64,000 nucleotides of DNA. Source: Candidatus Daviesbacteria bacterium RIFCSPLOWO2_01_FULL_39_23. Its GTDB lineage: Bacteria; Patescibacteriota; Microgenomatia; Daviesbacterales; UBA10151. The DNA lies in contig MFDN01000005.1 in NCBI GenBank assembly GCA_001776935.1, positions 68,893-132,892 on the forward strand, given 5' to 3'. Of this stretch, positions 11,940 to 33,433 are shown piece after piece. Each line of letters starts with the position of its first letter. Position 1 is the stretch's first letter. The notes under the pieces are model-generated. The model saw only the letters and a program-made list of their open reading frames with translations. It had not been told where the DNA came from and searched no databases. Both the position numbers and the translations under genes were made by a program.

Positions 11940-11998
11940 TTGGCCATTATGATAATGGGAGGAACTAAAATAATCAAGAAGTTTTAATATTAATAGCC

Positions 11999-15647: not shown

Positions 15648-15957
15648 TTGATGATACCCAATCCAAGAAGTCCAATAATAATAAGGTACCCGGCTATCAG
15701 ATAGTTAAGAAATTTCGGAAAAATAAGAATCAATACTCCAAATGCTAATGAAGCCAAGGGAGTTAAATTTGCAAAAGATATACTCATATATTATCACCCC
15801 CTCTCCAACAACTCATTTTTTGGACCGATGGCTAAAAAGCAATAACCAATCAGCGGTCTTATCTAAACACTTTTTTAATAAAACCGATATAGCGCTAACT
15901 GTATCTTATAATCGTAAGAAATCAGGCAGAAAACTGCACCTTCTTGGTAAGACAAAC

Positions 15958-16120
15958 AAATACTTTTTCTCTAAAAGCAGGTATAGTTTGACGTTTTGCC
16001 GCATTAAATTCAGGTTGTTTTTCTGGTTCGAGCAAGACAAGTTTGGCTCCGCTGAGTTGGTACACTTACTTGTCGTGAGGAGTCTTCGACGAAGGAGAAC
16101 TGACAATATTGGAATCAAAC
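15958..16120. repeat. Repeat copy 1 (blocks A then B) including a degenerate fic 3'-end remnant
   Basis: 15958-16010 matches 17953-18006 (contains AGTTTGACGTTTTGCCGCATT, encoding ...AAKRQT(I/V)PAFREK on the minus strand). 16043-16120 matches 17853-17925. The two blocks are in opposite order in the two copies. Confidence 0.6.
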
Positions 16121-16139
16121 GACAATTTTGAACCTGTTT

Positions 16140-16529
16140 TTATTTAGCTGCCAATTTATTTAAATCTTTATCAAAAGTAAAAAGAGTAGAATTATTTTCT
16201 TTGGCTTTACATATCAAAAAACAATCAACAAAATCAATATTTTTACTTTTGCAAGCCTCCAACGCTTCTTTAAAAACCATCCTATCTTCAATATCGAGAT
16301 ATGAGGTCACTAAAAGAGTATTCACCTTCTCTATTACTTCAGCTTTGGGAAATTTATAGTATTTATCCAAGGCAAATAAGACTTCAAATATTATTATTTG
16401 GGGAACAAATATCCTTAGTTTTCCTGATTTAGCTTTAATTAATATATTTGCTGCTTCTTTGGCTTGACTTGGAATATCGTCTAGTAGAAACCTTAAAAAG
16501 ACATTTGCATCCAGTGTTGAAGATTCCAT
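16140..16529 (-). CDS. PIN-domain toxin (VapC-like)
   Basis: 129 aa. N-terminal LDANVFLRFLLDD; PIN acidic residues; downstream of and overlapping a small antitoxin gene. Confidence 0.65.
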   Translation of the reverse strand: MESSTLDANVFLRFLLDDIPSQAKEAANILIKAKSGKLRIFVPQIIIFEVLFALDKYYKFPKAEVIEKVNTLLVTSYLDIEDRMVFKEALEACKSKNIDFVDCFLICKAKENNSTLFTFDKDLNKLAAK

Positions 16530-16533
16530 TAAG

Positions 16534-16773
16534 TTATATAGATTTTTTGGCTATATATCCCTCAAATGCTTTACGAATCTCTTTTGGATAAGCTTGTATA
16601 TTAGTTTTTAATGAACCCTTAAGATCCAGCAGATCTTTTACCGGCTCTATAACAAGTTTGCCGTCTTTTTCTGTAACTATAGCTTTTTTAGATTTGTCTA
16701 AGCCTAGCTTCCGACGGATAGGAGCTGGAATACTTATTTGACCTTGAGAAGTAATTGAAACCATGTATGCCAT
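16534..16773 (-). CDS. AbrB/SpoVT/MazE-like antitoxin
   Basis: 79 aa. SITSQGQISIPAPIRRKLGL swapped-hairpin beta-barrel motif; directly upstream of the PIN gene. Confidence 0.6.
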   Translation of the reverse strand: MAYMVSITSQGQISIPAPIRRKLGLDKSKKAIVTEKDGKLVIEPVKDLLDLKGSLKTNIQAYPKEIRKAFEGYIAKKSI

Positions 16774-16909
16774 ACATTACTTATACCATATTACATTATA
16801 TTTGTCAAGATACATTAAATTAAAAACTCAATTAAAGAACTACTTTCTTCTCGCCTTTTACATATTGGCTAATCAGCAAGTTAATAACATTAGAAGTTAT
16901 TTACCAGAA

Positions 16910-17218
16910 CTATTTGAAAACTCCTGAAAAAAGCAGAATCAGGACAACAGCAGTCATAATTGCAAAGATTCCAACAGTTTTAACAAACAGGTTTACTGCT
17001 TCTTTTTTCTTACCTTCAATAAAAAGTAGAAATGGTTGATAAAAAAACAGGAACGCCATGACTGCTGCAGAAAGGGTAAACACGAATAAGGCCGTGATCG
17101 GGGCAAAAAAAGTATCTGGTTTATTCTTTAAAGGTTGCGTCACAAAGGTCATAACAGAGACAACAAGGATTATATAGGCTGAAGCACTCAGTGCATTAAT
17201 AATAGGATTTTTGGACAT
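16910..17218 (-). CDS. Small membrane protein (3 TM)
   Basis: 102 aa, hydrophobic. Confidence 0.35.
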   Translation of the reverse strand: MSKNPIINALSASAYIILVVSVMTFVTQPLKNKPDTFFAPITALFVFTLSAAVMAFLFFYQPFLLFIEGKKKEAVNLFVKTVGIFAIMTAVVLILLFSGVFK

Positions 17219-17289
17219 ATATTAATTATACCAAGCTGGCTCTGTTTAATGTCGGATGTTAGAACTTATTATTCTAAACAAGTTTTTGT

Positions 17290-17778
17290 TTAAGCTGACT
17301 TAAAGTGTTCCACCACTCCATTTAGCATTTGGCGGACACACCATTTAGCATACATATCCCCAAAAAGAACTCCCAATAATTTAGAAACTCCTGTTGGGAA
17401 GTCGTAATCAATAAATATCTTTAATTTCGATTCCTCGTTTTCAGGAACTATCTCTACCCCCATTTGATAGTTCCCAATCACAAGTAGTGTTACATTCCCA
17501 ACTGTTTCCCATGCTTTTCGATGTGGCGGATTATATTCAGTAACAACCTCTTCCAGAAAGAGATTTATTCCCAACACCTTACCGCTCATTCGAATGTGTG
17601 AGCCTACTTTTTGCCCATTGCCTTCATCTACCTGCGTTTCCATTTTTCCTCCACCCATCATCCACGAGGACTTATTCATATGTGATGAGAAAGCATTATG
17701 GTCATCAATGAAATTAAAAGCATCATTAGGAGATGCCTGAATCAGAGCAGCTTCCTGGTAATGATGAGAATACGTCAT
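17290..17778 (-). CDS. SRPBCC (START/polyketide-cyclase-like) ligand-binding protein
   Basis: 162 aa; size and beta-grip-like pattern consistent with the Polyketide_cyc2 family; no database confirmation. Confidence 0.45.
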   Translation of the reverse strand: MTYSHHYQEAALIQASPNDAFNFIDDHNAFSSHMNKSSWMMGGGKMETQVDEGNGQKVGSHIRMSGKVLGINLFLEEVVTEYNPPHRKAWETVGNVTLLVIGNYQMGVEIVPENEESKLKIFIDYDFPTGVSKLLGVLFGDMYAKWCVRQMLNGVVEHFKSA

Positions 17779-17852
17779 GCTTTAAGTATATCAATAGTTT
17801 GAACTGTCCATTAGGGGTAATAAAAATTTAAGGCTAAAATTACTGGCTCCAC

Positions 17853-18006
17853 GGATTTGGCAAACTTACTTGTTTTAAAGGATCTTCGACAAAAGAGGAC
17901 TGGTTATATTGGAATCGCAGAATGCCTATAAACCAATATTTATCTAATACCTATCTTCCAAATACCTTTTTCCCTAAAAGCCGGTACAGTTTGACGTTTT
18001 GCCGCA
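17853..18006. repeat. Repeat copy 2 (blocks B then A) overlapping the fic 3' end and its downstream region
   Basis: See copy 1; here block A is the genuine 3' end of the fic gene. Confidence 0.6.
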
Positions 18007-18812
18007 TTTAAAACTACAGGAGCTGGTTTACCGGTCTTTATTGCATACTCAGTTGCCTCAATAATCTTACTACCCTTCAAGTAGGCTATTCTTTTATGTA
18101 AAGCTTCCATAAGTGCAAGCGATATCAGTCTCTCCATTATTTGAGTTTTTTTGTCATCACGAAACTCTATAAAAGAACTGTAATAATCTGTTTTTTCTTT
18201 ATCGCGGATAATTATACCCGGAAAACCGAATCTATAAAGCTGATAATTTATAATTACCCGTCCAATTCTGCCATTACCATCGTTAAAAGGATGAATTGTT
18301 TCGAATTGCAAATGGAATTTAGCAACCTTGTCTGCAAAATATGTACTTTGATCGCTTGAGTATTCAATTAAAGCTTCTTCAATCATTCTTTCTATATGCT
18401 CCGGAGGCGGAGCAATAAAACTGCCAACGCGCACATATTCCCCTTTTTTACGTAATCTGCCGGCAATCTTTTCATCAATATTTCCTATTAACATCTGATG
18501 AAACAACAATATAGTTTCTTTGGAAAGTTCTTCCGCAATCTTACCCTGGATATATTCCATAACCCGAGCTAAATTTTTTGCTTCAAACACTTCACGTAAG
18601 GAGACATTTTTTGATATTTCCATCTCTAGAAGGATTTTTTCGGTTTCTTTAAGAGTTAATGTGGAGTTTTCTATAGCATTGGAGTTATAAACACTTTCTG
18701 GGATTTCAGCTTCATCAATAATTTTAAGTAAAGACAGCTTGCCTATCTTTAAACGATCATATTCTTTTTTTAGGGTTTCTATTCTTTTTTGAAGGAAAAG
18801 AGGAGTTGGCAT
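17940..18812 (-). CDS. Fic-family protein (class II, canonical motif)
   Basis: 290 aa. HPFNDGNGRIGR (HPFx[DE]GNGRxxR) plus an N-terminal inhibitory-type SNAIEN motif. Confidence 0.85.
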   Translation of the reverse strand: MPTPLFLQKRIETLKKEYDRLKIGKLSLLKIIDEAEIPESVYNSNAIENSTLTLKETEKILLEMEISKNVSLREVFEAKNLARVMEYIQGKIAEELSKETILLFHQMLIGNIDEKIAGRLRKKGEYVRVGSFIAPPPEHIERMIEEALIEYSSDQSTYFADKVAKFHLQFETIHPFNDGNGRIGRVIINYQLYRFGFPGIIIRDKEKTDYYSSFIEFRDDKKTQIMERLISLALMEALHKRIAYLKGSKIIEATEYAIKTGKPAPVVLNAAKRQTVPAFREKGIWKIGIR

Positions 18813-19011
18813 GATGAAATTATTATATCAGATTCACGTTATTTTGTCAAATTAGCGTGAATCGACTGCCATTTACGGTATAAATTCATGCTTTTTGACT
18901 CAAGAAGCGTAATTTTAATATGAGCACGCTCCTGCTTTGCAGTAACCATGAGTTTATTACATATTATCAAGATATTGACTCCTGCGTATCATTATGATAC
19001 GCTAGAAACAT

Positions 19012-20064
19012 ATGAATGATACGCAAGTAAACAACCGGCAGACTAAATTACTGGAATTTTTATTAGTAAACTCTCCGTCTTCAAGATCCAAAATCGAAAA
19101 CCTCCTGAAAGATGACAATGTTTCCCGAATAACCATTATTCGAGACTTAAATTATCTTATCAGCGTTGGTTTAATTGAACAGGTTGGGGGCGGTAAGTAT
19201 GTAAAATACCGTCTCAAGCCAGAGAAAGAATTACTTATTCCCATAGATCTAGAAAAATACTTCTCGACAGTAACCGATACTAGAAAAATCAAATATCCTA
19301 CATTTAATTTTAATTTGATTAATCGTTTGATGGGGTTATTTTCCAAAGACGAATTGGAGTTGTTTGAGACTGGAAAGGACAAATTGAAAAATAAATTTTC
19401 TTCCTTGGACAAAACTATATTAAAACGTGAACTGGAAAGGTTTACGATTGAACTTTCATGGAAATCTTCCCAAATAGAAGGCAACACCTATTCTCTCCTC
19501 GAAACTGAGGAGTTAATAAAAAATAAAAAGGAGGCAAAAGGACACGATAAAAGTGAGGCAATAATGATTCTCAATCACAAGGCAGCCTTTGACACGATTT
19601 TAGAAAAGAAAGAGAGCTTTAAAGAAATCTCGGTTGCGGACATTAGGAGGATTCACTCGGAACTGGTAAGAAAATTGAATATAAAATCTGGAATTAGGGA
19701 ATCTGCCGTGGGAATTACCGGAACTAAATATCGACCCCTAGATAATAAATGGCAAATAGAGGAAGCTCTAAATAAATTTGTGGTTCAGACAAAAAAAATC
19801 AAATCAGTACCAGAAAAAGCTTTAATTTTTCTAGCTGTTATTGCTTATTTGCAACCTTTTACTGACGGCAATAAAAGAACCTCCAGAATGATCAGCAATG
19901 CAGTTCTCCTTTCAAACGGCTATTATCCTCTTTCCTATAGGAGCGTAGACGAAGTTGAATATAAAAAGGCTTTAATTCTTTTTTATGAACAAAATAATCT
20001 TTACCATCTAAAAAGAATCTTTTTAGAACAACAACGTTTTGCGATCGAAAACTACTTTCTCTAA
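19012..20064 (+). CDS. Fic-family protein with N-terminal winged-HTH and a degenerate active-site motif
   Basis: 350 aa. N-terminal DeoR-like wHTH. Fic core reads QPFTDGNKRTSR (His to Gln, Gly to Lys), so it is probably catalytically altered. Confidence 0.7.
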   Translation: MNDTQVNNRQTKLLEFLLVNSPSSRSKIENLLKDDNVSRITIIRDLNYLISVGLIEQVGGGKYVKYRLKPEKELLIPIDLEKYFSTVTDTRKIKYPTFNFNLINRLMGLFSKDELELFETGKDKLKNKFSSLDKTILKRELERFTIELSWKSSQIEGNTYSLLETEELIKNKKEAKGHDKSEAIMILNHKAAFDTILEKKESFKEISVADIRRIHSELVRKLNIKSGIRESAVGITGTKYRPLDNKWQIEEALNKFVVQTKKIKSVPEKALIFLAVIAYLQPFTDGNKRTSRMISNAVLLSNGYYPLSYRSVDEVEYKKALILFYEQNNLYHLKRIFLEQQRFAIENYFL

Positions 20065-20350
20065 ACAGAAAGATCAACGACTGGCTCAAAACATTGGAGC
20101 GACATACAAGGAAGCTGACGACCAACTGAAACGCTACTACCTCAATTTGTTCTTTGGAGGTGGTGGTTTCTTTGTTAAGGATGGAAAGATTGTCAAAGCG
20201 AAGCTCTCAAACGACGTAAAACCCCTCATCAAAGATGGGTCAGTTCGAGTAAGAATGAATTGGCTCGAACGATGGTATGTTTTCCGAAGGACAGACTGGG
20301 TAAACTACCTGGAATATCCAGAATTTACAACTAAGGAAGTGACTAGGTTT

Positions 20351-21151
20351 TTACAAATCTAGCTTGCTAGCCTCTTTGTTTACTCGACCGACTTCGCCAA
20401 GATAGCGTTTTGAAAGATTGTTAAGCTGTTTTGCAATTCCTAGCTTCAGTAACTTATTAGATCTTTCCACAATCGTTAAAAAGAAATCAAATGAGGCAAT
20501 GAGGTCTTCCTCCACCCAGCTTTCACTCCGTCCAATGTCTACGGTATAACCTTTATCATGAGCCTTAACATAATCATTCATTGTTCTGACAGCCGAATGG
20601 GTGATATTGGATTGCAAATAATAAACGGTTTGATAAGCTCCCTCTCTACCAATCTCCTCCGCCATTTGCCTGATTGGTTTATCAGACCATCCCATTCTGC
20701 CATAATTATGCTTTTCCTGAACCAGCTTGGCATATTTTTCTACCTCTTCGATAGTAGTATCCCCAGGTTTGGGGTGAAGTTTCCTCTCCTCAAATAGCTT
20801 TGCGAAGGTAGGCACAGTTTTGGCGTAATCATACATTTTTTTCCTTATTATCGAATCATAATGGAAATATCTTAAAACTCTTTTGTTAGTAGGATCTTTC
20901 AGGATATAAAGGAGCGTAATTGAAAGATCAAAAAGAGAGCGGGTTAGTATTGCAGCGTCCTCACCATACCCCTGCGCACAAAGAAATAAAATAGCGCCAT
21001 GAGTTTTATAAGCCTTACCAAACATAAAGGTGCTAAGAGCAACTTTTGGAGTAATTTTGTGAAACTCCTTGTTCATAACACTATCAACTATCTTCCGAAG
21101 CTCTTCGTTAAAATCAAAGAGGTCTTTGTGTTTCTGATAGATTATATTTGG
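20351..21151 (-). CDS. Hypothetical protein, last gene of the candidate defence operon
   Basis: Probable start at MPNIIYQ (ATG overlapping the stop of the upstream gene); about 266 aa; no recognised motif. Confidence 0.45.
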   Translation of the reverse strand, partial: PNIIYQKHKDLFDFNEELRKIVDSVMNKEFHKITPKVALSTFMFGKAYKTHGAILFLCAQGYGEDAAILTRSLFDLSITLLYILKDPTNKRVLRYFHYDSIIRKKMYDYAKTVPTFAKLFEERKLHPKPGDTTIEEVEKYAKLVQEKHNYGRMGWSDKPIRQMAEEIGREGAYQTVYYLQSNITHSAVRTMNDYVKAHDKGYTVDIGRSESWVEEDLIASFDFFLTIVERSNKLLKLGIAKQLNNLSKRYLGEVGRVNKEASKLDL

Positions 21152-21158
21152 CATAGAT

Positions 21159-21833
21159 TTACCTTTCATCGAGGGCATAAGGACGAGTAATGGCACTAGG
21201 GGGAACTTGCCCACCACCTGATTGCGAAGAAGAAGTTGATGCACAGGTGTTTGTTGAAATAGGTTTTGGATAACCGCTTGCACCACTTGATCGTGTCGTG
21301 GAGGTTACAACCCTAATTGGAAGCTGATCGATCAAATCCTTATACCGAGAGTTTTTATTACCAATAGAATTTTCAGCTTGATTTACCCTTTGGGTATATT
21401 TATCGTCCTCTAATTCCTGCTTAAACTTGTCCAAAGATTCCAAAAAGTCATTAACTAGGGTTTCTGCATCTAGAACTGCCCCTTCGACTTCTTTATAGAC
21501 AGCTGGTTTCCCTCCATCTCTGCTTATACCACCCCTTGCGAAATATTCGTGTGCCAACCCATTTCTAAAAATATCCCTAAGAATTTCTACGGGGTAATCG
21601 CTTGGGTTGGTAAAACACTTGGAAATATACTCCTGGACACTTTGGGCGAAACTGGTGTAACGACCCAGAAGGAAGCTGCCCAAATATTCCATGTAGGCTA
21701 AAACACAAAGGGCTAAGGGGAAGTTAATATTCCCAATCGCAGCGGGCTGCGGTCTTATTCTGTCCCGCATATTTTCTAAGTCTTTTTTAATGTAACCAAA
21801 GACTACTGTGCCTAAGAATGTCTGCCTATCCAT
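21159..21833 (-). CDS. HEPN-like protein (Rx4H motif), third gene of the candidate defence operon
   Basis: 224 aa. FRNGLAHEY fits the HEPN R-x4-6-H motif; C-terminal S/T/G-rich tail. Confidence 0.4.
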   Translation of the reverse strand: MDRQTFLGTVVFGYIKKDLENMRDRIRPQPAAIGNINFPLALCVLAYMEYLGSFLLGRYTSFAQSVQEYISKCFTNPSDYPVEILRDIFRNGLAHEYFARGGISRDGGKPAVYKEVEGAVLDAETLVNDFLESLDKFKQELEDDKYTQRVNQAENSIGNKNSRYKDLIDQLPIRVVTSTTRSSGASGYPKPISTNTCASTSSSQSGGGQVPPSAITRPYALDER

Positions 21834-21835
21834 AT

Positions 21836-23629
21836 TTACTTTCCTTTTATCGAATTAAAGAACTTGCTGACCTCATCTGGTAATCTGCTTAAGTCAATAG
21901 ACTTTATTACTTCAAATTGAAAACCCTTATATGTTAGGTTTTTAACCTTACTCGACTCCGCTGATAGACGGTCATATAGTTTTTTGGTCATTACTTTTCC
22001 GTCAATTTCCATCAATTTAGTTGAGCTGTCCTTTTCTATCGCTTCAAGATGGTTTGTTACATCTTGTGCCTTGTATTGTCTTTCGTCTGAACTGGCGGCG
22101 TCTGCTATCGCTTCAATATCAAAAAGAAAAACATTCTCGAGCGTCTTGTATGGAGTTACTAAAACATTATTGCCAATCTGCCCCAGAACACCTTCGTCAT
22201 CTTTGTCAATTAAGGCTAAGATGTTCAGGGTAGAAGGTTGTTGGGTGAGAGTGCCGATAAATGTCCTAAAAGCATCACTTGTCTGGATTACTCCTGGTTT
22301 ACTCCCAGAACCAGGTTTATTGTCTGTTCCTGCAGGTATGAATACAACACAATTTTTTAGAGGATCTATCAACCTCTGGTAGACCTTAAAGTCCTCTAGA
22401 TGGTCTTTGGCATTTGGGATACCCTCAACATAAACAATCTTAGGGGCAAGAAAGGCTAAATCGAATCTTTTACCAAGAGAGTTGAGAAGCTCAACTCTAG
22501 TGGTCAAATTGTCAACCTTTTCAATAGACTTAGAGTCACTAGTAATCTGATAAACATTCTCGGTGTTAGCGGAAATAAAGTCTGAGGAATGAGTAGAGAC
22601 AAGACAGCTAAAATCCTTCGCTTTAAGAAAAACACCGTTCATAAATTCTGCTAATCTAGTAACATACTCTGGATGAAGGTGAATGTCTGGTTCGTCGATA
22701 AGCACTATCGGTTTGAACGCTTGGCGTTCCCATTGAATTAACATTGCAGCCAAACCGATTACCTGCCGTTCGCCTGAGCTGGCAAACTGGATTGGATAGC
22801 TTCTGTTTATTTTTTTATTAGTCATTCGGAATTTCATTTCCCCTTTCTCAGCTTGAATTTTGTCGAATGAAAGCTCTAGGGGATAAATGATCTCATTGAT
22901 TCTTGAAAGGGTATCTTCTAATTCGGGAAAGGCTACCTTTTGTTGAGAAAAGACTCTCCAAACTGCCATCATTGCTAATCGATTGAGTAGACTACCTAAT
23001 TGAATATTGCTTCTAGTGGTTCTTTGTCTTATGTCAAAATCTCCAGTAACAACCTCTGTCATTTCAACATCACGAGGCGCAGCTCCTAAAAAGGAAGTGC
23101 CTCCCTCGCCAATGTCTTGGAGGGGTTTAACAAACACGCCTAATACTTTATGCCTACCAAGTTCGGATAACCAAGAAGGAATGTCGTTTTGAGAACTGGC
23201 ACCTATGAACTTACGAGTTGATGGTTGCTGAGGAGAAAAGTCAGAAGGTATTGACAGTTCAACAGTAAAAAAATACCTTCCATTTTTCTTCTGAAGGTCG
23301 TTTTGTATCGTTTGCAAAACTGTTTCCCTTGAAGTAAAAGCATTAGGACTTTTTTCAACCAGTATTTCCGCTAGATGTCCAAGGTCGTCATCGCTTAACG
23401 AAACAGAGGCTCGCCACACCGCCTCTGCCCCCGTAATACCACTAACAACTGTCGTATCAATTTGATTTATGTCTACACTATTCAAAAGGAAATTAGCCAC
23501 TTCAAGTATTGTTGACTTGCCTGTCCCGTTCTGACCAGCAAGAACAATAAATCCAGTAAGTTCAGACGCCTTAACTTCAAAGTTCTCAAAACCTCTAAAA
23601 CCAGTAATTTTTATTTCTTCCACTCTCAT
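21836..23629 (-). CDS. OLD-family nuclease-like protein: ABC-type ATPase (AAA_15/21) fused to a TOPRIM-like C-terminal domain
   Basis: 597 aa. Walker A LAGQNGTGKST; Walker B / D-loop VLIDEPDIHLHP; C-terminal IVYVEGIPNAKDH and ALIDKDDEG (TOPRIM-like E and DxD). Confidence 0.65.
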   Translation of the reverse strand: MRVEEIKITGFRGFENFEVKASELTGFIVLAGQNGTGKSTILEVANFLLNSVDINQIDTTVVSGITGAEAVWRASVSLSDDDLGHLAEILVEKSPNAFTSRETVLQTIQNDLQKKNGRYFFTVELSIPSDFSPQQPSTRKFIGASSQNDIPSWLSELGRHKVLGVFVKPLQDIGEGGTSFLGAAPRDVEMTEVVTGDFDIRQRTTRSNIQLGSLLNRLAMMAVWRVFSQQKVAFPELEDTLSRINEIIYPLELSFDKIQAEKGEMKFRMTNKKINRSYPIQFASSGERQVIGLAAMLIQWERQAFKPIVLIDEPDIHLHPEYVTRLAEFMNGVFLKAKDFSCLVSTHSSDFISANTENVYQITSDSKSIEKVDNLTTRVELLNSLGKRFDLAFLAPKIVYVEGIPNAKDHLEDFKVYQRLIDPLKNCVVFIPAGTDNKPGSGSKPGVIQTSDAFRTFIGTLTQQPSTLNILALIDKDDEGVLGQIGNNVLVTPYKTLENVFLFDIEAIADAASSDERQYKAQDVTNHLEAIEKDSSTKLMEIDGKVMTKKLYDRLSAESSKVKNLTYKGFQFEVIKSIDLSRLPDEVSKFFNSIKGK

Positions 23630-24135: not shown

Positions 24136-24166
24136 TACTGTAAAATTATCATAAAGTTATCATACT
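24136..24166. promoter_or_regulatory. Divergent promoter/operator region between the defence operon and the lexA-like gene
   Basis: 31-bp intergenic segment containing TACTGT and the direct repeat TTATCATA-AAG-TTATCATA; candidate repressor operator. Confidence 0.3.
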
Positions 24167-24766: not shown

Positions 24767-24802
24767 TAAATTCAAAAATTATAGAATAAGGATAAGATTA
24801 AT

Positions 24803-25588: not shown

Positions 25589-25606
25589 GATAATTAGCTT
25601 AAAGAT

Positions 25607-26398: not shown

Positions 26399-26538
26399 CT
26401 CCCTTAAACAGTTTCCCCCATTTCTAACCGCCTGTGTTGACTTGTGTGGGGCTTTCGTGCCTGGGATGGCATAGTTTCACCTCTGTTTGACTTCAGACCC
26501 CTTGTTTGGCATAGTTGCTGGTTACATAAGGTGATAAC

Positions 26539-26824
26539 TATGAATATGAACCAAAATAGACAGTGTCAGCATAATTTAAGGGCAAAAGCCTTTGGCGAAG
26601 CATTAAAAGAAGGCATCAGGGAAGATGTGATGATGCGGTCTTGTTTTCAGTCAGATTTTTCATTAGACAAACATGAGCGTAAATCCAGGCAAAAAATAGA
26701 AAAACTTCTAAACGGAGATCGCAAGAAGGAAATATCAGAGTGGAAGAAAAACAGTAAGACAAGAGCCGAAGCATCCAGACAAGCATTTATAAGAGGGCTG
26801 AAATCGGGAGACAAAACAGAGTAA
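26539..26824 (+). CDS. Hypothetical basic protein
   Basis: Probable ATG at 26539 within ORF 26444-26824; upstream TTGACT and direct repeats TGGCATAGTT x2. Confidence 0.3.
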
Positions 26825-27008
26825 TTTAGTAGCTACAATCTCTAATTAGCGCCCAGTCTACAGTTTGACCACCCTGAGATCTGTTGATCACGCAGCGCAT
26901 AGTTCCCTTAAACCACAGATACTCCAGTGCTAGGAAAAACATAAAGAACAACAGTCCAACTATGAGCATCTTTTTCATAGGTATTTTTACACTACGACAA
27001 TTGCTGTC

Positions 27009-27740
27009 CTAATTTTCAAACAGCGGCACGGTATTCCAATACTGAATCTGTTTGTTGCCATCAACGGTAATGCGGATGGTCGGATAAGAGTAAGGTCTAC
27101 CCTCTAAGCCTTCGGGCAATTTATAACCCTTGTCTTCCCAGAACCACTGATGTAATTCGCCGCCGTATTTTCCAGAATAAATAAACTGTTCTTTGATTTG
27201 ATCAAAGTTCTTTACTCCTCTGACAAGGTAGCCAAAGGCAACGGCTTCAGCTTCCGTCTTGGTAATCTTCGGCATAGTATTTGAACTTGTGTCTGAGCAA
27301 ATAACACCGTTGCTCTTGTAGCCCTCGATTTCACTGGGTTTGAGTCCCGCTATGACAACTGCCACTAAGGAATGGTTTCTGGAATCAACATGATACTCAT
27401 AAACCGAGCATTGTCCATTAAGTAGTTCCTTTTGGTGGTAAATATCTACTTGGCGTGTCCAACCCTCAACTGCCTCCATATTTTCTCCACCCTCCATCTG
27501 GGTGACTTTGCCAACCCTGAAATATACGGGGAAAGGCACATCCGATTTAACAAAGGCTAACTCCAAAGCAGGTTCTGCCATGAAACTGCGAATGGCTGTC
27601 TCATCTTGAGCGGTATTATCAACTTCTTGTTTGGGTAGTAAAGCAGGAACATAGTTGTTTTTCTTTAACCAGACAAAACCAGTCCCCAAGCCAACCAAGA
27701 TAAGTAAGGTAACGATTATTTTTGTCTTCATATTTTTCAC
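27009..27740 (-). CDS. Secreted/membrane-anchored hypothetical protein
   Basis: 243 aa with an N-terminal signal/TM segment. Confidence 0.4.
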   Translation of the reverse strand: MKNMKTKIIVTLLILVGLGTGFVWLKKNNYVPALLPKQEVDNTAQDETAIRSFMAEPALELAFVKSDVPFPVYFRVGKVTQMEGGENMEAVEGWTRQVDIYHQKELLNGQCSVYEYHVDSRNHSLVAVVIAGLKPSEIEGYKSNGVICSDTSSNTMPKITKTEAEAVAFGYLVRGVKNFDQIKEQFIYSGKYGGELHQWFWEDKGYKLPEGLEGRPYSYPTIRITVDGNKQIQYWNTVPLFEN

Positions 27741-27745
27741 CCCCT

Positions 27746-28414
27746 TTACGGATAGGGCGGATAATCAGTCCAGCCCTCTTCTCCTTGAATAAAATAACGA
27801 CTATCGGTGGTATTACAAACCCTGGGATGCCCAGTGCGCCTAGAAGCCTCCTCGCTGGTGACTTGACCACCATCATGCCCGATAGCTTTAAGGCAGTCAT
27901 CATAGTTATTTACCCAGCTATACTTTGCCTGCATTTGCTCTTTCCAGGTTGGAGCAACATCTCCTCCAGGTAAAAGTGCTGGTGTAAAGGGGTTATATTC
28001 CTCACAACCATGATCACAATCCCTGACGCTGGGTATGCCTTCGTTTAGAAGAATTCTGGCTATCTCCCAAGCGCTCATTGACTGGGAAATATCGTAGGCA
28101 GTCTCGGTATCAATGGTGTTATTGCCAACTTTAATCGCTCCAACCTTACCAGGCGTATTGTCCTTGGTGTGTTCAAGAGCGTATTTAAGAGCTTCTTCGT
28201 CTTTGACGAATCCATAATAAGCAAGATTGCCAGTAACCGCTATAAGGGTATTTTGTTTGTCAACTCGGAACTTAACCACAGGAGCAACTTTGCGAGGCGC
28301 TGCAAATTTATTCTGGGACGACTGATACCAATAGAAACCGCCAACAACAAACAGGAGAACAACAAGCAGGAAAGGAATAGTAATCCTAATCTTATTTTTC
28401 ATCTTTATTGTCAT
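27746..28414 (-). CDS. Secreted/membrane-anchored hypothetical protein
   Basis: 222 aa with an N-terminal TM segment; Cys-containing extracytoplasmic domain. Confidence 0.4.
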   Translation of the reverse strand: MTIKMKNKIRITIPFLLVVLLFVVGGFYWYQSSQNKFAAPRKVAPVVKFRVDKQNTLIAVTGNLAYYGFVKDEEALKYALEHTKDNTPGKVGAIKVGNNTIDTETAYDISQSMSAWEIARILLNEGIPSVRDCDHGCEEYNPFTPALLPGGDVAPTWKEQMQAKYSWVNNYDDCLKAIGHDGGQVTSEEASRRTGHPRVCNTTDSRYFIQGEEGWTDYPPYP

Positions 28415-28614
28415 ATTTTGATATAGTTCGGTATGTTAACTTGCTGTCGAGGAGATTGTCAAATCAAACAGAAAGCTCCCCGCCAGCGATAGCCTTTCGA
28501 CTACCCATACCCCTTTCGGGATACAACCTTCGCAGATGCTCTGACTAGGAGCTTTTATCTGCGAAGGTTTTGATGCCATGCCCTTGCGGGTTTAGGCGGT
28601 TAAATTGTTAAATT

Positions 28615-28806
28615 TTATGGCTTATCTCTGCCGTGCATAAGTTTCAAAATATCTTCTTTTTTATAACGACGGTCTTTGCGTTGACCAAAGCGGACAGACT
28701 GTAAAATGCCTTTTTTATCCCATTGACGAAGAGTATTAGGATGAACACTAAGCAATTTGCTTGCCGCTGATAATGTTAAAAGCTGTGGAACGGTTTGGTC
28801 AGTCAT
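28615..28806 (-). CDS. Excisionase/MerR-type HTH DNA-binding protein
   Basis: 63 aa. LLTLSAASKLLSVHPNTLRQWDKKGIL matches the excisionase-family HTH pattern. Confidence 0.55.
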   Translation of the reverse strand: MTDQTVPQLLTLSAASKLLSVHPNTLRQWDKKGILQSVRFGQRKDRRYKKEDILKLMHGRDKP

Positions 28807-28827
28807 AATTGATAGCGGACTCGCTAT

Positions 28828-29799
28828 TTGTTAACATTAGACTACAATAAGCAACAGTTTATTGCAACTATGACGATGAAAATTGACGAGGAATACAAAA
28901 CCTACACAGCTTTTGTTACGAAACTCGCTGTTATAAAGCAACTCTTGCTTAATCAGGAAGAACCTTCTTATATCTTGGAACGCTACACTCAGAAACACTT
29001 ACTAAGTGAGGAGCAGTTTCAAGGGATACAATCTTTGGTTAACAAAGACAAGAACGAGTTAATAAGACTCTTGGACAAAAGTATAAAAGATTTCATGGCT
29101 GGTAGACATCTCGATAAAATTACAAATCCAGAGCTAATAAAATACTCCTATAAATACCAAAAAGATAACTTTATCAACAAAATCGCAGATTATATAAAAC
29201 AATATGGACTAAAAATACCACTCCATTTCGAGGAGGACGCTTCTCTCTTCGGAGAGAACACAACCAGGATAACCTTCATAGAAACTTTAATAGCCTTAGA
29301 GTCGGAAGGATTTATCTCGATTGTTAGTATTAGAGAAGGGACTTCAAAACCACACGAAATCATTACCGCAGACGCTGGCGTTTGGTCTTTGACCAAAGAT
29401 GAAAACAGAAGTGGTTTTACCGTTTACCCAGTTCCTATTGCTACTATACAGCTTACAAGAAAGTTAATTAGCCTTATCGAGCCCCGACTCTCATATACCC
29501 CTCACAAACTGTCCTTCAAAGGCAAAGTAATTTTTATTCCAGAAGGCGACCAAGATACACTCTGTAGGGTAATTTTGCGAAATAAAAATGCAATGAAAAG
29601 AGAGTGGTCATGGGATGAAGTGCTAGAAAAATCAGGAGAAAGAAATATCGACACAAATATGTGGCGCAGGGTTTATAACGCAGGGCGTGAGATCAATAAA
29701 AAAGTGGCAATAGAAACAACAATTAAGGATCTGCTCGATGTTAGAAAGCAGACAATCTCAGTAAACACAAAATATCTGCCATTTCCCCCGAACAAGTAG
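28828..29799 (+). CDS. Hypothetical protein
   Basis: 323-aa ORF in the island; no motif recognised. Confidence 0.35.
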   Translation: MLTLDYNKQQFIATMTMKIDEEYKTYTAFVTKLAVIKQLLLNQEEPSYILERYTQKHLLSEEQFQGIQSLVNKDKNELIRLLDKSIKDFMAGRHLDKITNPELIKYSYKYQKDNFINKIADYIKQYGLKIPLHFEEDASLFGENTTRITFIETLIALESEGFISIVSIREGTSKPHEIITADAGVWSLTKDENRSGFTVYPVPIATIQLTRKLISLIEPRLSYTPHKLSFKGKVIFIPEGDQDTLCRVILRNKNAMKREWSWDEVLEKSGERNIDTNMWRRVYNAGREINKKVAIETTIKDLLDVRKQTISVNTKYLPFPPNK

Positions 29800-29865
29800 T
29801 TAGATAACTTTATATAACCCCTTAGGAGCTAGGCTTATGTTAATAGCCTAGCTTTTTTTATAACT

Positions 29866-30117
29866 ATGAACCAGCAATTAAACGAGAATTACTATCAGAC
29901 CAGCGATCTATCTCTCGCCACAACCCTCTCTTTATTTGCGCCGATAGAAGAAATTGATCGTTCTACTAATCCCCGCAAAGCACTGTTTATCTTCCGCAAA
30001 ACTCCTGAACTGGAGAAGCTAATTGACCAGTATTTCCGAAACGAAATCAAAATCTCGCCTCAGACCTATTTTAATCAGTTGCGTGTCGTGAAGGCACGGC
30101 TCTATGCCAACGAATAA
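29866..30117 (+). CDS. Hypothetical small protein
   Basis: 83-aa ORF. Confidence 0.3.
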   Translation: MNQQLNENYYQTSDLSLATTLSLFAPIEEIDRSTNPRKALFIFRKTPELEKLIDQYFRNEIKISPQTYFNQLRVVKARLYANE

Positions 30118-30264
30118 CTATGATAGATAAAAATTTACTATTGGAACTAAAACAAATCTTAAAAGAAGACTTTGATCTGGAATTAAGCCTCCAGGAAGTT
30201 ACAGAGATAGGCACAACCCTACTGGCTTTTACCGAGACTTTATTAAAAATCGAGTCAACAAACA

Positions 30265-30528
30265 GTGGAGGAAACAGTTATGACGCCCATAGATAAATTT
30301 GTAAGCATTCTAAAACCGCTTTTATTAGCAGGGTGCGGTATTGAATTAACCACAGAAGAAGCGTCGATTGTGGCAAATACGCTGACAGATTTCTTTGAGG
30401 CATTGGCATTAATCGAACACAAAAAGGATTGTCCTAAGAAAGAAAAGCTTGAAGAATACTTGAGACAAAAATGGGGCGGTAAAAGAAAAATTAATATGAC
30501 CATAAATAACCATGATGATCTCAATTAA
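30265..30528 (+). CDS. Hypothetical small protein
   Basis: 87-aa ORF. Confidence 0.3.
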   Translation: MEETVMTPIDKFVSILKPLLLAGCGIELTTEEASIVANTLTDFFEALALIEHKKDCPKKEKLEEYLRQKWGGKRKINMTINNHDDLN

Positions 30529-30868
30529 CGATATAACTATCAAAATTAAACTCTTGAAATCAGAAACCATGCTAGCCCAGGCAACCGTAATACTTTTTGG
30601 TGTCTGGAAAGAACATGGCTGGAAGGTGTTGAGATCTGATCGACCACATCCAAAACATCAAGATTCCCTATGGTTTCAAGCGCCAAGCTATCGACTAGGT
30701 AGTGGTTGGCACGAAATCGTCTTTATCGATGATCTTGATCTATACGAGGCTGTGATAGAGAAGATTTACAACGCCTATTGCCTTGCCAAAAGCAAACAAC
30801 CCGATCAGGGAGAAAAAGAGGAAGAAATCAATCCAGAGGATGTCGATTTAGAAAGCATTAACTTATGA
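30512..30868 (+). CDS. Hypothetical protein
   Basis: 118-aa ORF. Confidence 0.3.
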   Translation: MMISINDITIKIKLLKSETMLAQATVILFGVWKEHGWKVLRSDRPHPKHQDSLWFQAPSYRLGSGWHEIVFIDDLDLYEAVIEKIYNAYCLAKSKQPDQGEKEEEINPEDVDLESINL

Positions 30869-30973
30869 AAAGACATAGTAACTATATAGGGACTTATAAA
30901 GGGAATTTTATAGTAACAATTTTTCCCTTTAAGAGGAAATGTATTTATATAAGTTACTATAGCTAATTTAACT

Positions 30974-31546
30974 ATGAATATCGTTACATCAAAGATACCA
31001 GGAGAACGAGCAAAACAATACGCCGCTTGGCTTCTTTATTGCGAAGTAGGCAGTTTAGAAAAAACGCTCAGGATGTGGGAGCGAATTTCAGCTCAAGATG
31101 ATACCGAAATGATACCGTTTTTTGGGGTTTTCCTGGGTAAACCCGCTGGTTTGGCAACACTCAAACGCTGGTCAGTCAAATATCGCTGGCAGGAACGAAC
31201 TGAGTTGAAAAACACAGAAGATCTGGAAGACATGAGGTTCAAGTTTAAGAGGATTAAGCAAACAAGAGCATATAAAATTGCCATTTTATTAGACAGGGTT
31301 CTTGATAGATTGGGTCGGCAGTTGGATCAAGGCATGTATGTCAGCACAAGAGATCTTTACACGCTTTGGAAGATGCACCGAGTTGAAGAGGGACTGAGTA
31401 TCGGAAACTACCAAGTTATCACTTACCAAGAACCGCCAGCAGAACCAAAAACCCCAGAAGAAATAGAGTTAGACAAGAAGATACAGGAAATAGTCAGTAG
31501 GTATCACAAGAACAACGACAAGGAGGAGCAACCTACCATTACTTGA
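30974..31546 (+). CDS. Hypothetical protein
   Basis: 190-aa ORF upstream of the serine recombinase. Confidence 0.35.
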   Translation: MNIVTSKIPGERAKQYAAWLLYCEVGSLEKTLRMWERISAQDDTEMIPFFGVFLGKPAGLATLKRWSVKYRWQERTELKNTEDLEDMRFKFKRIKQTRAYKIAILLDRVLDRLGRQLDQGMYVSTRDLYTLWKMHRVEEGLSIGNYQVITYQEPPAEPKTPEEIELDKKIQEIVSRYHKNNDKEEQPTIT

Positions 31547-31592
31547 TATTGCCAAACAATTTGTTTATGTTCTGTGTTACATCAAAATTACT

Positions 31593-33275
31593 ATGAAAAC
31601 TGCCATATTCTGCCGAGTAAGCAGTAAAGAACAAGAAGAAACAGGCTACTCCCTGCCAGCTCAGGAGAAGTTCTTGAGAGAGTATGCTGACAAACAGGGC
31701 TTGGAAGTCGCCAAAGTCTTCGCCGTCTCCGAGTCCGCAGCAGGCAAGGTTCAGAGAAAAATCTTCATCGAGATGGTCGCCTATGTCCGCAAGCATACCA
31801 TTCCCACGATTATCGTGGAAACAACTGACCGTTTAACCAGGAATTTCTCTGATGTCCCCACCATTGACTTATGGATTACCGAGAACGAAGAACACCAAGT
31901 CCACCTGGCAAAAGAAGGCTGTATCCTCCACAACTCCTCCCGCTCTCACGAATGGTTTATGTGGCGGGTCAAAGTGGCCACCGCCGAGTATTACGTCCGT
32001 CTTCTTTCAGAGAATGTGAAGAAGGGGCAGAAAGAAAAACTAGCCCAAGGCTGGATCCCCACCAAACCACCACTTGGGTACAAAACAGTGGGTGAAACCG
32101 GCCACAAAATCCATGTCGTTGATGAAGGTGCTTCTAAGCTAGTAATCAAGATGTTTGAGCTCTACGCCTCCGGCGATTATTCCATCAAAAAGCTTGCAAC
32201 CACTATGTATGAAGAAGGCATGCGCTCACCGCAGGGCAACAGACTGGCGATCAGCAGGACCCACTCCCTGCTGCGTGATCCTTTCTATATGGGTAAAATA
32301 AGGTGGAACAATGAGATCAGCGAAGGCAAACATCAACCGTTAATCAGTAAAGAACTATTTGATAAGGTCCAAAATATGCTTGTGAGCAAAACCACCCCTA
32401 AATATATGAAGCACGACTACCTCTTCAAAGGATTAATCCGCTGTGCAGGCTGTGACGGACTGATTACCTGGGAACTACATCGGGGTCATCACTACGGACA
32501 TTGCAACCACTATCACGACTGTACCCAAGAAACGTGGGTCAAGGAACCGGAAACCGAAGAACAACTCTTAGACGGTTTTGATAGCCTCCGCATCAAAAAC
32601 CAGCGGGTAACTGAGTGGCTCAAGAAAGCTCTCAAAGAAAGCCACCAGGACGAAGTTCAATACCACAACAGCACCGTCGGCGATCTGGAAACCCGCTATG
32701 AAGCTGTCAGCAGAAGAATGGACAAGTTGTACGATGACAAGCTCGATGAGAAAATTACTCAGGAGTTTTATAACCGCAAGTTCAAGCAATACTCCAATGA
32801 AAAAGACGAACTAACCGAAACCATCAAACGCCACTCCATCGCCAGCACTGGCTACATAAACTTTGGTATTAATCTCTATGATCTCTCGCAACGAGCCAAA
32901 AACATCTACCTAACCGCCAAAAATAAAGATATGTTGGACGAACAACGAGCACTGATTAGGCTGGTCTTCGCCAAGTTAACGCTCAATGAAGGCAAACTTA
33001 GCTGGGAATACTCCAAGGCATTTAAAATGCTTTCAGAAGCAGTAGCCCAAACCAATTGTTCTAAAGTGGAAAATTTAGAGGATTTTGAAAAAGGAACTTT
33101 CGAACATGCAGAATTGCCCGACAATTCAACACAAAAGGACGCTTTATTGCCTCTGCGTCCCATCTGGCTCCCCCGCGTGGATTCGAACCACGAACCTCGA
33201 TCTTACAGAATTCCACTTGTTACCAAATGGTCTGGACTATCTAATCATCCCAAGATGCGGGAGCCGGGTATATAG
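31593..33275 (+). CDS. Large serine recombinase (resolvase catalytic domain, recombinase domain, zinc ribbon)
   Basis: 560 aa. N-terminal AIFCRVSSKEQ (catalytic Ser); zinc ribbon CAGCDGL...HCNHYHDC. The last ~37 codons run antisense over the tRNA-Asn 3' exon and intron. Confidence 0.85.
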   Translation: MKTAIFCRVSSKEQEETGYSLPAQEKFLREYADKQGLEVAKVFAVSESAAGKVQRKIFIEMVAYVRKHTIPTIIVETTDRLTRNFSDVPTIDLWITENEEHQVHLAKEGCILHNSSRSHEWFMWRVKVATAEYYVRLLSENVKKGQKEKLAQGWIPTKPPLGYKTVGETGHKIHVVDEGASKLVIKMFELYASGDYSIKKLATTMYEEGMRSPQGNRLAISRTHSLLRDPFYMGKIRWNNEISEGKHQPLISKELFDKVQNMLVSKTTPKYMKHDYLFKGLIRCAGCDGLITWELHRGHHYGHCNHYHDCTQETWVKEPETEEQLLDGFDSLRIKNQRVTEWLKKALKESHQDEVQYHNSTVGDLETRYEAVSRRMDKLYDDKLDEKITQEFYNRKFKQYSNEKDELTETIKRHSIASTGYINFGINLYDLSQRAKNIYLTAKNKDMLDEQRALIRLVFAKLTLNEGKLSWEYSKAFKMLSEAVAQTNCSKVENLEDFEKGTFEHAELPDNSTQKDALLPLRPIWLPRVDSNHEPRSYRIPLVTKWSGLSNHPKMREPGI

Positions 33276-33433
33276 TCTCTACACATTTACCCCGCCACAG
33301 CGGGGATTTAGCTCGGGATTACCCTTCGATTACTCTCAGGGCTTCCCCGAATTAGCCCGATTTTCATCTCGGCATTACTGCCGGGAGCTGCCTATTTTGA
33401 CAGGATCTCGCTCTACCGTTGAGCTACAGGGGA
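33165..33433 (-). tRNA. tRNA-Asn (GUU) interrupted by a group I intron; exons 33433-33400 and 33205-33165
   Basis: 5' exon UCCCCUGUAGCUCAACGGUAGAGCGAGAUCCUGU resembles the E. coli tRNA-Asn 5' half. 3' exon UAAGAUCGAGGUUCGUGGUUCGAAUCCACGCGGGGGAGCCA. Joined anticodon loop CUGUUAA. Acceptor pairs with a G-U wobble; CCA encoded. Confidence 0.7.
33206..33399 (-). ncRNA. Group I intron (~194 nt) in the tRNA-Asn anticodon loop, between nt 35 and 36
   Basis: 5' exon ends in U and the intron ends in G (omega-G). The core contains GUGUAGAGACUAUAUACCCGG and UAGAUAGUCCAGACC, which resemble conserved group I P7/P3 and S-element segments recalled from the Azoarcus tRNA-Ile intron (GUGUAGAGACUAGACGG, AGAUAGUCC). 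Confidence 0.6.

Follow-up and report, generated by a model that had tools for sequence, protein, structure and literature searches.

We describe the region beside a tRNA-Asn gene in a 64,000-nucleotide stretch of DNA (the window) from a groundwater Candidatus Daviesbacteria, a member of the Candidate Phyla Radiation (CPR, Patescibacteria). Between about 16.04 and 33.17 kb, the window probably holds a tandem accretion array at the CCA end of the tRNA gene, in which the newest unit (20267-33163, 12.9 kb) was driven in by a large serine recombinase (LSR) that carries the element's attachment site (attP) inside its own open reading frame (ORF). A sequence-only reading of the same DNA had proposed a single integrated defence island. 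Instead, internal core scars and the separate recurrence of blocks in relatives point to an array of about seven separately acquired cassettes. The unusual points are the targeting of a tRNA by a serine recombinase, the partition of the recombinase's own gene on integration and a read-through caused by an intron. The architecture, the junctions, the recurrence in other genomes and the two classes of recombinase C-terminus described below are read from sequence comparison.

The loci of relatives were found by scanning species-representative genomes for DnaG, which gave about 55 Daviesbacteria loci with DnaG identities of 57-81%. Labels such as L045 or L104 denote loci or contigs of related genomes or metagenomes used in the comparisons. 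Proteins identical to those of the window occur on contigs from the Rifle aquifer, including NCBI assembly GCA_001776705.1 and a 267-kb JGI contig.

Junction between the recombinase gene and the tRNA gene

The tRNA-Asn(GUU) gene lies at 33165-33433 on the minus strand and was recognized from an Rfam intron match, hand parsing and ARAGORN on the spliced sequence. Exon 1 (33433-33400, parsed by hand) is separated from exon 2 (33205-33165, with CCA encoded) by a 194-nt group I intron (33399-33206) between anticodon-loop positions 35 and 36. The tRNA that had been placed at the right end of the region is real, albeit intron-split, and the end coordinate given for it, 33433, is its exact 5' end.

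Overlapping the 3' part of the tRNA gene from the opposite strand is the LSR gene (31593-33275, plus strand), which encodes 560 residues as integrated. Its identification as a serine recombinase is borne out by Pfam, with a Resolvase domain (1.3e-18, residues 4-153) and a Recombinase domain (3.1e-16), and by the N-terminal sequence ...CRVSSKEQ with the RVSS catalytic motif. Residues 1-526 (to 33170) are encoded by the element, residues 527-537 are antisense to tRNA exon 2 and residues 538-560 are antisense to the intron. The junction between element and host is marked by the active core CTGGCTCC (33164-33171, plus strand), the complement of the last acceptor bases, the discriminator and the CCA of the tRNA.

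Comparison with related elements places the crossover at this core. In five of them homology runs through ...CGTCCCATCTGGCTCC and gives way to host-specific tRNA acceptor stems or, in L097, to non-tRNA DNA. The element sequence stops after ...CATCTGGCTCC, and the acceptor stems beyond it are host-specific and self-complementary; homology with other Daviesbacteria ends at 33157-33167. Because the element homology ends there and the acceptor stems belong to each host, we place the crossover at the CCA-end core and regard the entire tRNA as host DNA. The same reason led us to reject a model that puts the crossover into the anticodon loop and has the intron block or lock the attachment site: element homology ends at the CCA end, and the tRNA, including its intron, is host DNA.

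Wherever a tRNA is present beside the close LSR homologs (76-86% identity) of other hosts, it is an intronless tRNA-Asn(GTT) encoded opposite to the LSR gene, which ends 36-42 nt inside it. In L098 and L101, the LSR stop codon TAA is the complement of U35-U36-A37 of the tRNA. The window has the codon TAC (33204-33206) where intronless hosts have this stop, and its ORF runs on for another 23 codons to reach 560 aa; removing the intron in silico gives an LSR of 537 aa. The change of TAA to TAC, and with it the gain of 23 residues, arises because the intron separates positions 35 and 36.

The probable attachment site within the recombinase gene

The other end of the newest element holds the counterpart of this junction. 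To the right of a core copy at 20261 lie 96 nt (20267-20362, plus strand) that we call the arm; it encodes 31 codons and a stop (ERWYVFRRTDWVNYLEYPEFTTKEVTRFLQI and then the stop) in frame with the Trp-Leu of the core, and appears to be the severed native C-terminal tail of the LSR. Joining the 526-codon body to the arm yields an in-frame protein of 557 aa, the tail of which aligns with the conserved native tail (W.DFRT..W...PE....VK.LL) of intact homologs. Most differences between copies of the arm are synonymous, and the stop codon keeps its position. A tRNA-antisense tail is present in at least 54 of the 120 best homologs and a native tail in at least 16. The antisense tails follow the pattern (W/L)L(P/R)..DSN, in which DSN is the antisense of the T-loop, and five of the 120 read past the Tyr codon into the intron antisense, like the gene in the window. 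On this comparative evidence (an arm at the far end, reconstitution of 557 aa and two C-terminus classes), the gene appears to span attP.

These comparisons are read most simply if the recombination core precedes the native stop by 31 codons and integration detaches the native tail and substitutes a host-encoded one. With the attP core inside the LSR ORF, integration would partition the LSR gene. The 526-codon body would stay beside the tRNA and gain a tail read antisense through it, normally of 11 residues and ending at the TAA complementary to anticodon-loop positions 35-37, and the arm that codes for the native tail would end up at the far left end of the element. The length of the LSR gene is then 537, 557 or 560 aa, depending on integration state and intron, which can mislead annotation. 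Because the arm matches the family of the right-hand LSR, and not that of a second recombinase remnant described below, we assign all 12.9 kb, including the defence cargo, to one element.

The junction predicted for the excised form (LSR end, core and arm; GTCCCATCTGGCTCGAACGATGGTATG) is found exactly in three metagenome contigs. In L106 an attP-type junction is contiguous with a 68%-identical LSR, and in L105 and L104 the junction lies within arrays of arm-bounded units. With the flanks of this particular element, the predicted attP junction would read ...GCGTCCCATCTGGCTCGAACGATGGTATG... and the predicted empty site (attB) ...AGAATGAATTGGCTCCCCCGCGTGGATT.... The junctions share a core of 6-8 nt. 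We infer that the LSR catalysed the insertions and that the element can still excise; the tail swap may affect LSR activity or directionality.

Several observations weigh against an LSR-driven accretion array. The three contigs with an attP junction carry related elements (68-86% identity) rather than this one, and at least L104 and L105 are chromosomal arrays, in which tandem elements would produce a junction identical to that of a circle. Contigs with intact-tail homologs have no terminal overlaps and are not demonstrably circular, and the empty-site junction of this element has zero matches in metagenome contigs. All same-strain assemblies carry the whole block and so give no evidence of current mobility. 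In the LSR itself, the Zn_ribbon_recom match (18.9 bits) stays below the Pfam cut-off of 25.3 bits. The direct repeats measure only 6-8 nt, the cores at about 16866 and 18895 are degenerate, and single-gene cassettes that lack an LSR are not explained by simple decay of full elements.

Core scars and older cassettes

From left to right, the array reads core 16044, VapBC, core ~16866, a 102-aa gene, core 17237, SRPBCC, core 17844, FicA, core ~18895, FicB with a pseudo-LSR (ΨLSR), core 20261, the 12.9-kb element, core 33165 and tRNA-Asn. At these boundaries each of the roughly seven cassettes ends in the tRNA 3'-end core, TGGCTC(C) on the plus strand. The full core TGGCTCC is the complement of the ...GGAGCCA end of the tRNA; on the plus strand of 16.0-33.2 kb it occurs three times versus 0.4 expected (P=0.007), each time at a boundary. 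Each incoming unit would recombine at the tRNA core 5'-GGAGCCA-3', the tRNA would stay intact, and earlier arrivals would be pushed leftwards. The VapBC, 102-aa, SRPBCC, FicA and FicB units, found in other species in other combinations, are by this comparison older cassettes.

The leftmost core, TTGGCTCC (16043-16050, plus strand), lies inside the permuted repeat at about 15958-16120 that the sequence-only reading had offered as the left boundary. The repeat exists and the limit is roughly right, but it is not an attachment-site repeat; it is the rearranged remnant of a Fic locus. Just outside the core, 15957-16008 (minus strand) is 90.6% identical to the 3' end of FicA at 17959-18011 and matches FicA residues 268-282 by tblastn; 16044-16116 is 76.7% identical to 17844-17916, and the order of the two segments is swapped. 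Directly after the leftmost core comes a block that we call B' (16051-16116), and directly after the core copy at 17844 its partner B (17851-17916). The two blocks are about 70 nt long, 77% identical, not tRNA-like by Rfam and not conserved as coding sequence, and elsewhere they have a weak match in one other locus only (L047). The idea that they are decayed tRNA halves was rejected, there being no tRNA signal even at permissive Rfam thresholds.

The genes that had been named in this left-hand part are all recovered by Pfam. VapBC consists of a PIN-domain VapC (16140-16529) and a MazE/AbrB-type antitoxin, VapB (16534-16773), both on the minus strand. This cassette closes on a degenerate core, TTGGCTA (16865-16871, plus strand); its DNA identity in other species is about 70%, and its counterpart in L058 ends at TTGGCT. 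The gene for a 102-aa membrane protein (16910-17218, minus strand) belongs to a block that starts at 16879 and ends at the core scar CTGGCTC (17236-17242, plus strand); its DNA identity in other species is 84%. In L071 the same block ends with ...CTGGCTC followed directly by CCCCGCGTGG, a 17-nt remnant of a tRNA 3' end, and the block of L021 ends at the same place.

The SRPBCC cassette (17243-17842) carries an SRPBCC/Polyketide_cyc2 gene (17290-17778, minus strand) and has a second copy of CTGGCTCC at its right end (17843-17850, plus strand). The counterpart in L045, 89% identical, continues directly into the real tRNA-Asn 3' end (TGGCTCCCCCGA...), and in the window TGGCTCC at 17844 is followed by divergent sequence. 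Both genomes delimit the block (about 600 bp) at identical points, with different neighbours on its left.

Two divergent Fic genes follow, FicA (17940-18812, minus strand) with the motif HPFNDGNGR and FicB (19012-20064, plus strand); both proteins match SoFic and PDC-S04 in PADLOC. The FicA block, 75-81% identical at the DNA level in seven other species, ends at a degenerate core, TGACTC (18895-18900, plus strand); in L028 the equivalent block ends with ...GCTC followed by CCCCGAGAGGA, a 15-nt tRNA remnant. FicB remnants in L021 (86-89% DNA identity) abut tRNA-Asn. The FicA, SRPBCC, 102-aa and FicB blocks are more similar between species than are rpoD and dnaG (73-78%); VapBC is not.

Some further features of the Fic pair were noted. 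Upstream of FicA, a conserved block of about 75 nt (18821-18896), taken as its promoter and operator, includes a palindrome (GATTCACG...CGTGAATC) and, overlapping it, a perfect promoter (TTGACA-17 nt-TATAAT), and is conserved at 82-85% even in loci without FicA (L026, L045 and L071). FicB does not have the canonical HxFx(D/E)GNGR motif that is present in FicA, and judging from its sequence may be catalytically inactive or divergent. A FicB-like gene (49-50% identical) in L018 and L020 has the opposite orientation relative to FicA.

What had been listed as a 107-aa ORF (20039-20362) turns out to include the C-terminal remnant of a second-family recombinase. This part, ΨLSR (20042-20266, plus strand), comprises about 75 codons and ends in '...MNWL', with TGGCTC at 20261-20266; it is, by homology, a relic of an earlier integration. 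By tblastn it matches the C-termini of LSRs beside tRNA-Asn in L044 (3e-10), L039, L019, L050, L078 and L023. Where ΨLSR stops, the intact enzyme of L078 continues as 'NWLPREDSN', antisense to the tRNA. The scar TTGGCTC (20260-20266, plus strand), homologous to the step from NWL to PRED in L078, is thus both the end of the ΨLSR remnant and the left-end junction of the newest element, and family-specific homology switches there. A CTGGCTC at 20081-20087, a 7-nt repeat 17 nt from the FicB stop (P about 0.002), had also been considered as the left scar; it was rejected, since it falls within a stretch of ΨLSR that codes for conserved recombinase sequence ('LAQNIG').

A displaced tRNA fragment of at least 11 nt was not found at the far end of the array, only the 6-8-nt core repeats, whereas relatives have remnants of 15-17 nt. 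A search of 12-33.1 kb for long attachment-site repeats or a displaced tRNA 3' half likewise gave nothing above chance, and this candidate was dropped. In L037, positions 12170-12340 contain the tRNA-Asn 3' end (ATCCACGCGGGGGAGCA) twice, as 17-nt direct repeats with the second copy about 140 nt downstream, and the very short insert between the two could be a miniature or emptied element that used the same attachment site.

Arrival of the whole region (15958-33433) in a single acquisition, as one defence island with the permuted repeat as its left limit and the tRNA as its right, would fit the presence of the tRNA and recombinase at one end, the deviating composition over all of 15-33 kb and the position of the leftmost core copy inside the permuted repeat, and arrays could in principle move jointly via their outermost sites. 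We nonetheless judge it highly improbable: core scars lie internally at block edges, a second recombinase remnant sits mid-region, the arm that matches the LSR family is at 20267 rather than at 16 kb, and the blocks occur separately or in other orders beside tRNA-Asn in L021, L028, L045, L058 and L071. The recombinase is accordingly linked to the right-hand 12.9 kb only, and not to the rest of the island to which it had been assigned.

How the units without an LSR entered is a separate matter: they may have been inserted in trans, or may have decayed and then been spread by homologous exchange. In one version of the first possibility, they are autonomous cassettes moved in and out in trans by recombinases whose genes lie elsewhere, an integron-like serine system with the tRNA end as acceptor. 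The SRPBCC block, with identical end points in two genomes with different neighbours, sits beside a live tRNA in L045 without a recombinase; blocks are closer between species (79-89% DNA identity, VapBC about 70%) than the core genes; and L105 and L109 have arm-bounded units without an LSR. Even so, we find this version rather unlikely. Apart from the 6-8-nt core, the cassette ends have no recognizable site in common, circular cassettes were not observed, and deletion of recombinase genes with homologous recombination between conserved flanks gives the same picture. Nor does the region resemble an integron proper, as it contains no tyrosine integrase and its cassette ends share no attC-like structure.

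Cargo and backbone of the newest element

The 12.9-kb element that heads the proposed array begins with a four-gene operon on the minus strand (20351-24135), annotated from Pfam, PADLOC, PDB and motifs. It encodes a DUF5677 protein (20351-21286), a 224-aa protein with an RNGLAH (Rx4H) motif (21159-21833), an AAA_15/AAA_21 ATPase similar to OLD, AriA and PtuA (21836-23629) and an LTD-like protein (23626-24135). In PADLOC the ATPase matches AriAB (2.6e-24), AriA, PtuA and Old, and in the PDB it matches AriA and the retron Ec83 ATPase; its C-terminus has a Toprim-like VEG...DKDD motif. Of the 'OLD/HEPN' label previously given to this operon, the operon itself and an ATPase of the AriA/PtuA/OLD ABC clade stand, and Toprim and HEPN are seen at the level of motifs only.

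On the plus strand follow a LexA-like S24 repressor (24167-24766), an N4/N6 DNA methyltransferase (24803-25588) and an MvaI/BcnI-type restriction endonuclease (25607-26398), all from Pfam and all as anticipated from the sequence alone. Between 26444 and 28414 are a 126-aa ORF on the plus strand and genes for 243-aa and 222-aa membrane-anchored proteins on the minus strand; the latter two have hydrophobic N-terminal segments, which fits their earlier description as secreted, and none of the three has a family match. As for a named defence system, only the ATPase matches in PADLOC, and the restriction-modification pair is recognized by Pfam. Searches with the DUF5677, 224-aa and LTD proteins and the other unknown proteins gave no NCBIfam, PDB or PADLOC matches.

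The right-hand part of the element is its conserved backbone. A LOOT RNA (Rfam RF03000, 78.7 bits) at 28488-28598 on the minus strand is followed by a small-gene module (28615-31546) with a MerR/HTH_17 gene (28615-28806, minus strand), which agrees with the excisionase-like gene expected here, and genes for a 323-aa protein, DUF5659 (29866-30117), proteins of 87 and 118 aa and a 190-aa protein (30974-31546) with a small-terminase-like PHROG match; against the PDB the 190-aa protein gave a chance-level match only. Hosts of the close LSR homologs, one of them annotated as Roizmanbacteria, share the LOOT RNA, the MerR-like gene, DUF5659, small ORFs and the LSR. Beside those homologs, the MerR-like protein is 95% identical (L102) and DUF5659 67-90%. 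The cargo upstream differs between related elements and is mostly defence (restriction-modification, Mrr, SLFN/AlbA and HEPN_AbiU2).

DNA homology with related elements begins at 28395-28427, and the LOOT RNA is the left edge of the conserved module. Counting the window, five independent elements linked to tRNA-Asn contain the RNA, 2.9-4.4 kb away from where the LSR gene starts, the other copies being at L022 18201-18311, L094 18992-19105, L097 6436-6549 and L102 7005-7112 (Rfam RF03000); some of the recombinases of these elements are no more than 25-28% identical. Immediately on the 3' side of the MerR/excisionase-like gene, the RNA of the window and that of L102 each lie at the border between backbone and variable cargo. 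No functional description of the LOOT RNA was found in the literature searched, and the locus gives it a genomic context.

Could the 12.9-kb unit be a degraded prophage or phage satellite, with the recombinase as a phage integrase and the small module serving lysogeny or packaging? The LSR matches the PHROG integrase phrog_95 (5e-72), the MerR-like gene matches excisionase PHROGs and the 190-aa protein, weakly, a small-terminase PHROG (2e-8); the unit has a LexA/CI-like repressor, and relatives with intact tails carry Rep_O, Cro/CI-type HTH and ImmA-like genes. On the other hand, capsid, portal, tail, large-terminase and lysis genes are absent, the cargo is mostly of defence type, no relative was found in IMG/VR and the best matches in phage genomes are only 24-27% identical. 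We consider this origin unlikely, and a viral origin as such was rejected, since IMG/VR gave no relative and phage genomes gave remote integrase matches only.

Several independent same-strain assemblies have their breaks within the newest element and not at either border (at about 28196, 28804, 30067 and 31791, the ends of L002, L003, L004 and L010/L017). Contigs of less than 2 kb often carry the 231-aa gene that neighbours the tRNA, and short contigs never carry the recombinase. The breaks and short contigs hint at strain heterogeneity around the tRNA and the element.

Composition and synteny

GC content does not set the block apart from its flanks (0.393 versus 0.402, p=0.37), whereas the tetranucleotide signature does. 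When the sequence was cut into non-overlapping 3-kb blocks and scored against a leave-one-out background, each of the six blocks in 15-33 kb deviated more than any of the 13 flank blocks (U=78 of 78, p=4e-5); in this signature the block at 12-15 kb resembles the host, and composition is host-like left of about 15 kb. The compositional contrast expected by the sequence-only reading is therefore missing in GC and present in tetranucleotides.

The order dnaG-rpoD-tRNA-Asn is conserved in the roughly 55 Daviesbacteria loci, the sequence after the tRNA differs in nearly every species, and the content of the block is not conserved. In L037, a homolog of the 452-aa gene of the left flank lies only about 450 nt from the tRNA. 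In more than 12 Daviesbacteria loci, a distantly related serine recombinase (21-35% identity) abuts or overlaps the tRNA-Asn 3' end in the same orientation. With an intact tRNA-Asn (33165-33433) at one end, an LSR gene overlapping the 3' part of the tRNA, variable content at the site and a distinct tetranucleotide composition (GC not being different), the region has the features of a tRNA-anchored island. As neither homogeneous composition nor conserved synteny is found, the accessory nature of the block, as first suggested, is supported.

A vertically inherited, fast-evolving locus, shaped by deletions and rearrangements without site-specific recombination and with a domesticated invertase or resolvase as its recombinase, is disfavoured to the point that we give it next to no credence. 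The block is fixed in all same-strain assemblies, GC is homogeneous and there are signs of decay (the Fic remnant and ΨLSR). Against this, the same junction nucleotide recurs in unrelated hosts, tRNA-end remnants flank blocks, blocks are more similar between species than core genes, and the recombinase has the domain architecture of an LSR-type integrase.

A second variable segment lies left of the array. Window positions 9600-12000 (an ATP-grasp gene and a 146-aa ORF) are missing in L049, where the equivalents of 9392-9601 and 12058-12219 are directly adjacent.

The intron-containing tRNA gene and other RNA genes

ARAGORN on the unspliced window reports no tRNA near 33.4 kb. Rfam finds Intron_gpI at 33213-33409 on the minus strand with 55.1 bits (gathering score 50), and joining the exons in silico gives a canonical 75-nt tRNA-Asn(gtt) that ARAGORN calls. 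In P1 of the intron there is a U·G pair, and its terminal nucleotide is a G. A class of group I introns between positions 35 and 36 of tRNA-Asn is known from Patescibacteria, with self-splicing demonstrated (PMC13011429). The intron in the window is by its sequence features a member of this class, alike in tRNA, insertion position, phylum and escape from standard tRNA finders. That paper makes no mention of recombinases or integration, whereas the intron in the window also removes the stop of a recombinase gene overlapping in antisense. Standard tools miss intron-containing tRNAs, a pitfall for annotation.

The same tRNA-Asn is found downstream of rpoD across Daviesbacteria, with the intron present in some species and absent in others. 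Delivery of the intron by the element was considered and rejected: across loci, presence of the intron is uncorrelated with presence of a recombinase.

In two loci (L021 5183-5425 and L036 9512-9936), the first 11-18 nt of tRNA-Asn with its upstream region precede an insert of 150-280 nt, beyond which lies another tRNA-Asn, complete and differing in its acceptor stem. These arrangements suggest another class of event, which replaces the tRNA gene itself.

Other RNA genes of the window lie outside the array. A tRNA-Ile with anticodon UAU (2828-2899, minus strand; ARAGORN and Rfam) represents an uncommon bacterial means of reading AUA codons. The right flank has a cluster of six tRNAs (37590-40372; four Ser and two Arg) and a standard one-piece tmRNA (43411-43830) adjoining smpB.

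Relation to known systems and significance

Targeting of tRNA genes is treated as a property of tyrosine integrases. Elements with serine integrases insert mostly within protein-coding genes (PMC5704250). The use of tRNA genes by serine integrases was called unknown in 2014 (PMC4383910), and in 2020 t(m)RNA genes accounted for only 14 of 297 computational serine-integrase cases, with experimental proof still required (PMC7192596). The enzyme in the window shares with LSR integrases of the phiC31, Bxb1, A118 and TnpX/TndX types the Resolvase and Recombinase domains, a very short identical junction core and a gene at the end of the element.

The closest parallels to the tail swap are among tyrosine enzymes. 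In the Myxococcus phage Mx8, as summarized in PMC6070905 (citing Tojo 1996 and Magrini 1999) and PMC4383910, attP lies within the integrase coding sequence and intP becomes intX: according to these summaries, integration at a tRNA 3' end gives the prophage integrase a new 3' end and an altered C-terminus and keeps the catalytic part, as proposed here for the LSR. The Mx8 enzyme belongs to the tyrosine recombinases, serves a complete temperate phage and targets tRNA-Asp, whereas the LSR is a serine recombinase of a CPR host that targets the CCA end of tRNA-Asn and takes its replacement tail antisense through the tRNA. 'Suicidal' archaeal integrases of the SSV1 type are similar in that integration into a tRNA gene partitions the integrase gene and leaves its two parts flanking the element; a review describes SSV-type integrases as exclusive to Archaea (PMC8371274). 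They are tyrosine recombinases split into non-functional Int(N) and Int(C), whereas the LSR would lose only its last 31 codons and keep its catalytic body. Being a serine recombinase, without the tyrosine chemistry of the Mx8 and SSV1 integrases, the LSR appears from these comparisons to work like them and to stand outside their families. In the limited set of literature searched, no serine recombinase was described as having attP inside its own ORF, and novelty is thus unproven.

The array as a whole resembles the tandem arrays known from Islander and TIGER in the reuse of a tRNA 3' end, the displacement of older islands, the attachment-site scars and the toxin-antitoxin and defence cargo. 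Classic tRNA arrays are made by tyrosine integrases and have tRNA-fragment repeats of 15-60 nt; the array described here has repeats of 6-8 nt (up to 17 nt in relatives), serine recombinases and several single-gene units without an integrase.

For these bacteria, the locus illustrates how toxin and anti-phage genes are gathered into a single replaceable array when genomes are as small as in the CPR. It also reveals, in Daviesbacteria and other Patescibacteria including Roizmanbacteria, an entire set of serine recombinases found consistently at the tRNA-Asn 3' end. As a tentative possibility, CPR LSR families may have taken over the tRNA 3' end, usually the niche of tyrosine integrases, with attP in their own genes and the tail swap as an inbuilt switch for activity or directionality; the 7-nt core, used repeatedly, would then give rise to integron-like arrays in which single-gene cassettes for toxins and defence pass between species, and LOOT RNA would be a working part of the elements. 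Partition of a recombinase gene by its own integration has previously been described for tyrosine enzymes (SSV-type and Mx8). A serine-recombinase counterpart, if true, would mean that the arrangement evolved independently, and would provide a natural pair of free and integrated recombinase isoforms for the study of directionality, which is relevant to the use of serine integrases as genome-engineering tools.

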